From positions 1-10,942 of the forward strand of contig JAEOSI010000057.1 in NCBI GenBank assembly GCA_016840425.1: a stretch of 10,942 bases of DNA, written 5' to 3'. The notes under the pieces are model-generated. The model had not been told where the DNA came from, made no database searches, and saw only the letters and a list, made by a program, of their open reading frames with translations. This DNA is from Candidatus Wukongarchaeum yapensis (lineage in GTDB: Archaea; Asgardarchaeota; Wukongarchaeia; Wukongarchaeales; Wukongarchaeaceae). Made by a program: the position numbers and the translations under genes. Positions 968 through 1,452 of the stretch are shown one piece after another (position 1 is the first letter of the stretch; each line of letters opens with the position of its first letter).

Positions 968-1067
968 GGAGCACCAACATTTTTTAGTTTGTTATAAGCT
1001 TCTCATAATATTATTATTTCCCTTATTTTTCTCTACAAGATTTTCTAAGATTCTATTTACATTAAAG

Positions 1068-1110
1068 TCGCAGAAAGCCAACGGCTTCTTTGGTCGTTGG
1101 ATGAATGCGA
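1068..1110 (+). repeat. IS200/IS605 left-end subterminal hairpin
   Basis: Inner stem CCAACGGC(1078-1085)/GTCGTTGG(1093-1100) with one G-T pair; outer stem TCGCA(1068-1072)/TGCGA(1106-1110); AAAG guide tetranucleotide immediately 5' of the inner stem. Confidence 0.75.
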
Positions 1111-1113
1111 TAG

Positions 1114-1121
1114 CTTAAATA
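1114..1121 (+). promoter_or_regulatory. Putative archaeal TATA box inside the element left end
   Basis: CTTAAATA lies at -30..-23 relative to G1144, where the GC-rich structured region begins; a T-rich tract (1123-1137) lies between. Inferred from sequence only. Confidence 0.45.
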
Positions 1122-1418
1122 GTTTGTTTTCTTTTTTAAGAACGGTCATGCCGCACAGCATGGTGGCAGGGTGGGTAAGACGAGGACAATATCAGTATAG
1201 GCCTCGGTGCTGTGCATTCACCCGAAAGGGTGCAAAGGCATCCGCAATGCGGCGATAAGCGTGAAACCCACGCCGGAAGAAGGGATAGCGCTAACGAGCA
1301 GCTGACTAGGCTCGTGTTTCTCTCCAAGTTGGGAACACTTGAAAGACACCCCTTTGAAAGACTTGGATAAAGAGAGGCATAAACCAAAAGCTTGTTGGGA
1401 AGCGGCTCACCAACAGGG

Positions 1419-1452
1419 GAACCTCACTGCTTTAGCGGTGGGAGGAAGTTAG
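1419..1452 (+). repeat. IS200/IS605 right-end subterminal hairpin and terminus
   Basis: GAAC + CTCACTGC-TTTA-GCGGTGGG (8 bp including 2 G-T pairs) + AGGAAGTTAG. Resembles the common '...TTTAG...GGAGGA.GTCA' right ends of IS605/IS1341 elements. The exact end is uncertain by about 2 nt. Confidence 0.78.

Follow-up and report, generated by a model that had tools for sequence, protein, structure and literature searches.

A protein-less IS200/IS605 mini-element of an Asgard archaeon with a candidate stand-alone TnpB guide RNA and a conserved 5′ hairpin module

We propose a model in which positions 1061-1452 of the window, by which we mean the whole 10,942-nt stretch of DNA analysed, form a PATE-type mini-element of the IS200/IS605 family (IS605/IS1341 group) that is mobilised by TnpA in trans and carries a stand-alone guide RNA for TnpB, a reading that we consider probable as a whole. 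Its parts are not equally firm: that 1061-1452 is a mini-insertion sequence we consider very likely, and that its interior is an RNA cargo with omega-RNA-like function is the interpretation towards which we lean. As proposed, a Y1 TnpA encoded elsewhere would excise and insert the element as single-stranded DNA without target duplication, recognising both subterminal hairpins, with AAAG pairing with TTAC. Transcription from a TATA-like box would yield a plus-strand RNA of ~310-330 nt, in which a conserved 5′ hairpin module precedes an omega-RNA-like scaffold; past the right end the RNA would continue into the flank as far as a run of six T, so that the flank at 1453-1473 would supply a 21-nt guide. 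A TnpB from elsewhere, for example the 414-aa protein of contig C235, which has the same left end, would together with this RNA cut TTAC-flanked empty sites, and through such cutting the element would therefore be retained by homing. As read from its sequence, the architecture of the interior is that of a putative TnpB omega-RNA plus guide, with an extra 5′ module. The features, all on the plus strand, are as follows.

1057-1060, plus: TTAC target/cleavage motif, external to the element
1061-1113, plus: left end, with AAAG (1074-1077), an imperfect hairpin (1078-1100), an outer stem (1068-1072/1106-1110) and conserved GGATGAATGCGATAG
1115-1122, plus: TATA-like box TTAAATAG, a candidate archaeal promoter
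1144-1252, plus: 5′ RNA module, with P0 (1149-1152/1237-1240) and the outer stem of P1 (1153-1161/1207-1215)
1162-1206, plus: inner parts of the 5′ RNA module, a 19-nt G-rich one-sided bulge (1162-1180) and an inner stem (1181-1185/1202-1206)
1219-1232 and 1242-1252, plus: small hairpins of the 5′ RNA module
1282-1417, plus: omega-RNA-like scaffold, with GGGATAGCGCTAAC (1282-1295), a hairpin (1296-1313), a long hairpin (1318-1376) and a further hairpin (1391-1417)
1418-1452, plus: right end, with GGAACC, an imperfect hairpin (1422-1445) with a TTTA loop, and terminal AAGTTAG
1453-1479, plus: candidate 21-nt guide flank (1453-1473), then T6 (1474-1479), a candidate archaeal terminator, both read from the sequence

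The element and its ends

The element is a 392-bp, protein-less island that lies directly 3′ of TTAC, and its GC content (55-59% over 1057-1452) stands out against the ~30% of the surrounding DNA. The preliminary description of this DNA had proposed an ORF-less IS200/IS605 mini-element here with both ends intact, and the ends, the borders and the gene-free interior bear this out. The external TTAC and the 13 nt that separate it from AAAG can be read where that description placed them; AAAG itself abuts the left-end hairpin on its 5′ side. TTAC is also the TAM to be expected for a partner TnpB. Folded as single-stranded DNA, the left end nests an inner stem (1078-1086/1092-1100) within the outer stem, and none of 200 shuffled sequences folds as well (z = -3.2). 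Both subterminal hairpins had been proposed, and the right one is likewise present, with a core of 1425-1430/1435-1440, the TTTA loop and a GG bulge, and homologous to covarying hairpins, yet in the window copy it is weak when taken alone (z = -1.2; 24 of 200 shuffles as good). The distance of 10 nt first given between this hairpin and the right end is approximate, the terminus lying 7 nt past the extended stem and 12 nt past the core.

Comparison of the copies described below sets both borders: likeness between them ceases upstream of TTAC on the left, and on the right the flanks diverge immediately past GT(C/T)AG. Imperfect subterminal hairpins at both ends and no terminal inverted repeats are found, as in PATE-type elements, and the window flanks, TTAC and CTCG, show no duplication, as in target-duplication-free insertion. 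As in PATE-type elements too, there is no protein gene: only four ORFs of 43-83 aa fall within the island, none with protein similarity, and a blastx comparison with every ORF of the genome returned no TnpB or TnpA similarity. Furthermore, the indels among copies measure 1, 2 or 4 nt, so that reading frames of any kind are broken between them.

The paradigm of the family, IS608 of Helicobacter pylori, inserts 3′ of TTAC without duplicating its target and has imperfect subterminal hairpins, the left one with the AAAG guide tetranucleotide at its foot. The present element resembles it in all four respects, but has no internal tnpA or tnpB, finishes its right end in GT(C/T)AG rather than TCAA, and has hairpins of unrelated sequence.

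The element lies between an upstream ORF with multiple hydrophobic segments (14-967) and a UbiA-family ORF on the same strand (1582-2559), which begins 130 nt downstream and whose top NCBIfam matches are all MenA models, each below its curated cut-off. This agrees with the first placement between a membrane-protein gene and menA. Two 28-nt stretches of the window, one just past the stop of the upstream gene (959-986, CTCTTATGAGGAGC...) and one just past the right end of the element (1453-1480, CTCGTATGACAAGA...), are 71% alike and both end in TTTTTTA, a likeness that may have arisen by chance or may be left over from the original target region. A search of the window for tRNA and tmRNA genes found none.

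Relatives, copies and empty sites

The source genome is an Asgard MAG of 2.16 Mb in 277 contigs (G000), apparently of Hodarchaeota type (Hod-type) as an ADF/cofilin ORF suggests, and in it the left end recurs at seven further places with 84-98% identity and different upstream DNA at each. TTAC precedes six of the seven, as it does both Borrarchaeum copies described below, and TCAC precedes the remaining one. The copy on C235 is 98% identical to the window in its left end and continues into an intact TnpB of 414 aa (OrfB_IS605 and TNB domains), terminating in a right end of the same kind. This right-end layout is common to the window and to the C7, C135, C235 and C117-type elements, and a 26-nt right-end stretch is 96% identical to C246. 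The window's right-end hairpin is homologous to those of the TnpB-bearing copies, among which 7 of 13 pairs covary (right-end hairpin and one upstream hairpin). A covariance model built exclusively from TnpB-linked 3′ ends (R2) matches the window at 1362-1452, that is, over the last ~90 nt only and with a modest E = 0.0014. The genome further contains 31 TnpB-domain matches, one internally deleted tnpA and one intact Y1 tnpA, on C70, whose element has the left-end layout of the window (TTAC, AAAG, hairpin, GATGAAT) with different stem sequences (39 of 60 aligned positions identical). Ends of this kind are therefore common to tnpA- and tnpB-bearing elements of the same genome. Both searches suggested by the preliminary description, for further copies with different flanks and for tnpA/tnpB elements with these ends, have thus returned what it anticipated, and TnpA is presumed to mobilise the element in trans.

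When aligned with Cas12f (7l48), the C235 protein (L004:60-1304) has Gly-Asp at the usual position of the RuvC-II glutamate (CGDL vs MENL), so that its activity is unproven; judging from the alignment, it has its catalytic residue elsewhere or does not act as a nuclease. The C117-type TnpB genes read IGDV at this position.

Deletion derivatives that lack the interior of the window element are found at C7:3190-3475 (285 bp), on C246 (~560 bp) and on C84 (51 bp). The last (G000:C84:3727-3777) is a minimal element past TTTTAC, in which the left-end hairpin is fused straight to the right-end terminus (...GGGATTATGTCAG), and the same fusion occurs in contigs of two metagenome runs. At G000:C117:12636-12800, the left-end copy with TCAC leads into a TATA-like word, then ~70 nt rich in GC and a T6 run, and a right end cannot be recognised there; a 193-nt contig of RNA library X20 spans this left end and its upstream flank. 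Elsewhere in the genome, an ORF on G000:C91 (L003:581-1087) that adjoins a decayed TnpB element encodes a full Cofilin_ADF domain (E = 2e-21).

There are five ORF-less copies that also share the interior, each at a locus of its own and together spread over four Asgard genomes: that of the window, one on C56 of the same genome (76%), one in a genome of the same genus (G001:C4, 79%) and one in each of two Borrarchaeum genomes. Identity among the copies is 76-80%, and the four copies besides that of the window adjoin unrelated genes. The C56 copy sits past CCTTAC, and the orthologous site of G001 measures 78 bp instead of 480 bp and is thus near-empty; half of the left-end hairpin of this copy is gone and the RNA part is still kept. 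The G000 counterpart of the G001:C4 copy, on C173, is rearranged. The Borrarchaeum weybense copy (G040:C8) contains a nested insert of ~190 bp (L035:1150-1335) with a reverse-oriented right-end-like hairpin (R2, other strand, E = 0.021), an insert that the B. yapensis copy, similar in other respects, does not have.

The element of the window is missing from the orthologous locus of G001 and therefore cannot count as a conserved host feature; this contradicts the circumstance named at the outset as refuting a mobile element, its conservation in all relatives. In its place the G001 spacer (C128, L045:780-1560) has 655 bp of unlike DNA, including a frame-broken ORF on the opposite strand (79 + 114 aa), so that one lineage or the other has had its spacer remodelled. 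Since that DNA fills the spacer, the predicted joint of 1060 to 1453 is unreadable in G001, and it was also not seen in four sequencing runs; the empty allele that had been predicted was therefore not found. Both junctions are bridged by DNA contigs from samples of other studies and, as no empty joint accompanies them, the window copy looks fixed, and not recently mobile, in the sampled populations.

The interior as a candidate RNA gene

Only the plus strand of the element folds better than its shuffles (z = -2.67, against z = -1.08 for the minus strand). All five copies have an AT-rich TATA-like word 26-30 nt ahead of a conserved GGTCAT (1144 in the window), the intervening spacer being variable, and we infer that the TATA-like box acts as the promoter of the RNA. 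The 5′ module that follows is conserved in structure: 4 of the 14 pairs of P1 are changed on both sides and yet remain paired between Hod-type and Borrarchaeum-type copies, which belong to two Asgard classes. On one metagenome contig 1223 C>T is accompanied by 1228 G>A, so that the small hairpin that follows P1 keeps its closing pair, and in another variant, 1207 G>A, a U-G pair has become U-A. RNAalifold pairs the 5′ strand of P1 with the 3′ arm of the right-end hairpin instead, a fold that competes with the covariation-supported P1. The four G-tracts of the bulge are kept in all five copies; we do not propose a G-quadruplex, because the changes 1165 G>T and 1175 G>A occur in metagenome contigs.

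The distribution of the 5′ module is narrow. A model built from the five copies (R1) found only these same copies in 151 Asgard genomes and two small classes, and the element was found in only 2 of the 85 Asgard genera searched. The exact pattern of the bulge was found among genome contigs only in Hodarchaeota DZ1B.339, two Borrarchaeum MAGs and one chance Chloroflexota match, and among metagenome contigs only in two copies of the Borrarchaeum locus; viral contigs yielded nothing for this pattern or for that of the left end. Our search of the literature found no description of the module. No Rfam family reaches its gathering threshold, the weak matches being HgcC (E = 0.58), D12-methyl (E = 6.6), an astrovirus frameshift site and CrcZ. 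The element is not a member of HgcC (RF00062), since it scores 15 bits against a gathering score of 50, and the weak match arises because the right-end layout, and nothing more, is held in common. The match to D12-methyl at 1126-1179 (14 bits, over GCCG-CACAGCAU-GGCAGGG-GGG) is taken as chance.

Downstream of the module, GGGATAGCGCTAAC differs at two positions from the consensus 14-mer of TnpB-linked ends, the sole such match in the window where 0.09 would be expected, and the hairpin that follows it has the same offset as in TnpB-linked 3′ ends. The scaffold at 1282-1417 shows compensatory changes between copies. Its central part (1314-1390) has no counterpart in TnpB-linked scaffolds, and BLAST of 1216-1452 against 400 Asgard genomes returned short right-end matches only and no TnpB-bearing parent of the central scaffold. 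In the Borrarchaeum relatives the same 5′ module stands ahead of a different and clearly TnpB-type scaffold (R2, E = 1e-14). As the middle part of these copies cannot be aligned with that of the window (32-33% identity), the 5′ module is joined to two different scaffolds.

By analogy with the way omega-RNAs work, 1453-1473 may serve as the guide; this stretch has no second match in the genome. A single 231-nt metatranscriptome contig covers 1175-1405 with five differences. It gives weak support for transcription because it is unstranded and its library may contain DNA; no contig of the flanking genes was found in this library, and a second search of RNA runs found the element in this one library only.

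An inert, decaying IS605 remnant, in which the ends are real, the interior is functionless and any transcript is noise, could account for the apparent fixation of the window copy in several samples, for copies that are only 76-80% alike, for the loss of half the left-end hairpin from the C56 copy and for the simple deletion derivatives without interior elsewhere in the genome (C7:3190-3475, C246 and the C84 fusion). We consider it unlikely, given that the interior bears no trace of tnpB coding sequence, that the 5′ hairpin has been kept by compensatory changes in two Asgard classes ahead of a middle that can no longer be aligned, that C56 keeps its RNA though the transposon end is gone, that the TATA spacing is conserved and that the RNA-library contig exists.

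The retention of RNA by the immobilised C56 copy would also suit a domesticated RNA with a host role, for example as a promoter/terminator cassette for the MenA-like gene or by guiding a TnpB-type regulator that has lost nuclease activity, as would the apparent fixation of the element and its position on the same strand just upstream of the UbiA/MenA-like ORF. This we find improbable: the other four copies lie beside unrelated genes, the genome offers no further target for the guide region, and the T6 run separates the RNA from the downstream gene. A host housekeeping RNA, or an 83-aa small protein encoded on the minus strand (ORF 1136-1387), that merely happens to lie between the hairpins would fit a GC-rich, structured island in which such an ORF is present, but this very improbable reading is already largely refuted by the absence of an Rfam family at threshold, of the element from the orthologous locus of the sister genome and from all but two of the 85 Asgard genera searched, by a minus-strand fold no better than shuffles, and by frame-breaking indels between copies and a paralogue without a matching ORF.

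Known systems and the 5′ module

Our preferred reading, a PATE-type mini-element with a stand-alone guide RNA, makes the element one of a known kind, because PATEs with omega-RNAs, stand-alone omega-RNAs and an archaeal PATE RNA have all been described. Protein-less PATE-like IS200/IS605 elements often encode omega-RNAs that are used in trans (PMC10055086), and stand-alone, mobilised omega-RNAs acting in trans have been summarised (PMC10691335). The PATEs of Geobacillus stearothermophilus (PMC10055086) and the omega-RNAs of Altae-Tran 2021 (in PMC10691335) resemble the present element in having no protein gene. They further share with it ends common to TnpB/TnpA elements of the same genome and, on the reading proposed here, a scaffold that ends at the right end with the flank giving the guide and a need for both TnpA and TnpB in trans. 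The present element differs in its Asgard host and candidate archaeal-type promoter, in the extra conserved ~100-nt 5′ hairpin module ahead of the scaffold, and in central hairpins without a relative beside any TnpB gene searched.

Among archaea, a PATE RNA is transcribed and the Rfam family HgcC has been linked to right-end hairpins (PMC4615843). Halobacterium salinarum VNG_R0052, the IS1341 sotRNAs and HgcC RF00062 (PMC4615843) are, like the RNA proposed here, archaeal intergenic RNAs from fused or retained IS200/IS605 ends with a right-end hairpin closed by a four-base loop, and the HgcC consensus end has the GGAACC-hairpin-GAGGAGGUCAG layout of the window. The loop is UUUA here as opposed to UUCA, and the proposed RNA exceeds HgcC threefold in length.

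Only the 5′ module looks new. We suggest tentatively that it (P0/P1 with the 19-nt G-rich bulge of invariant length, 1149-1240) may be an undescribed RNA domain, found so far only in protein-less IS605 elements, and it could shed light on the expression or loading of stand-alone guide RNAs. If this is true, the module might act as a transferable domain for expression, stability or TnpB capture, and it could let a gene-less element parasitise the transposase and nuclease of its relatives. The element also gives a compact, promoter-driven candidate guide scaffold together with a candidate partner TnpB and a TAM (TTAC), in Asgard archaea whose TnpB lineages are of interest as kin of the eukaryotic Fanzor nucleases.
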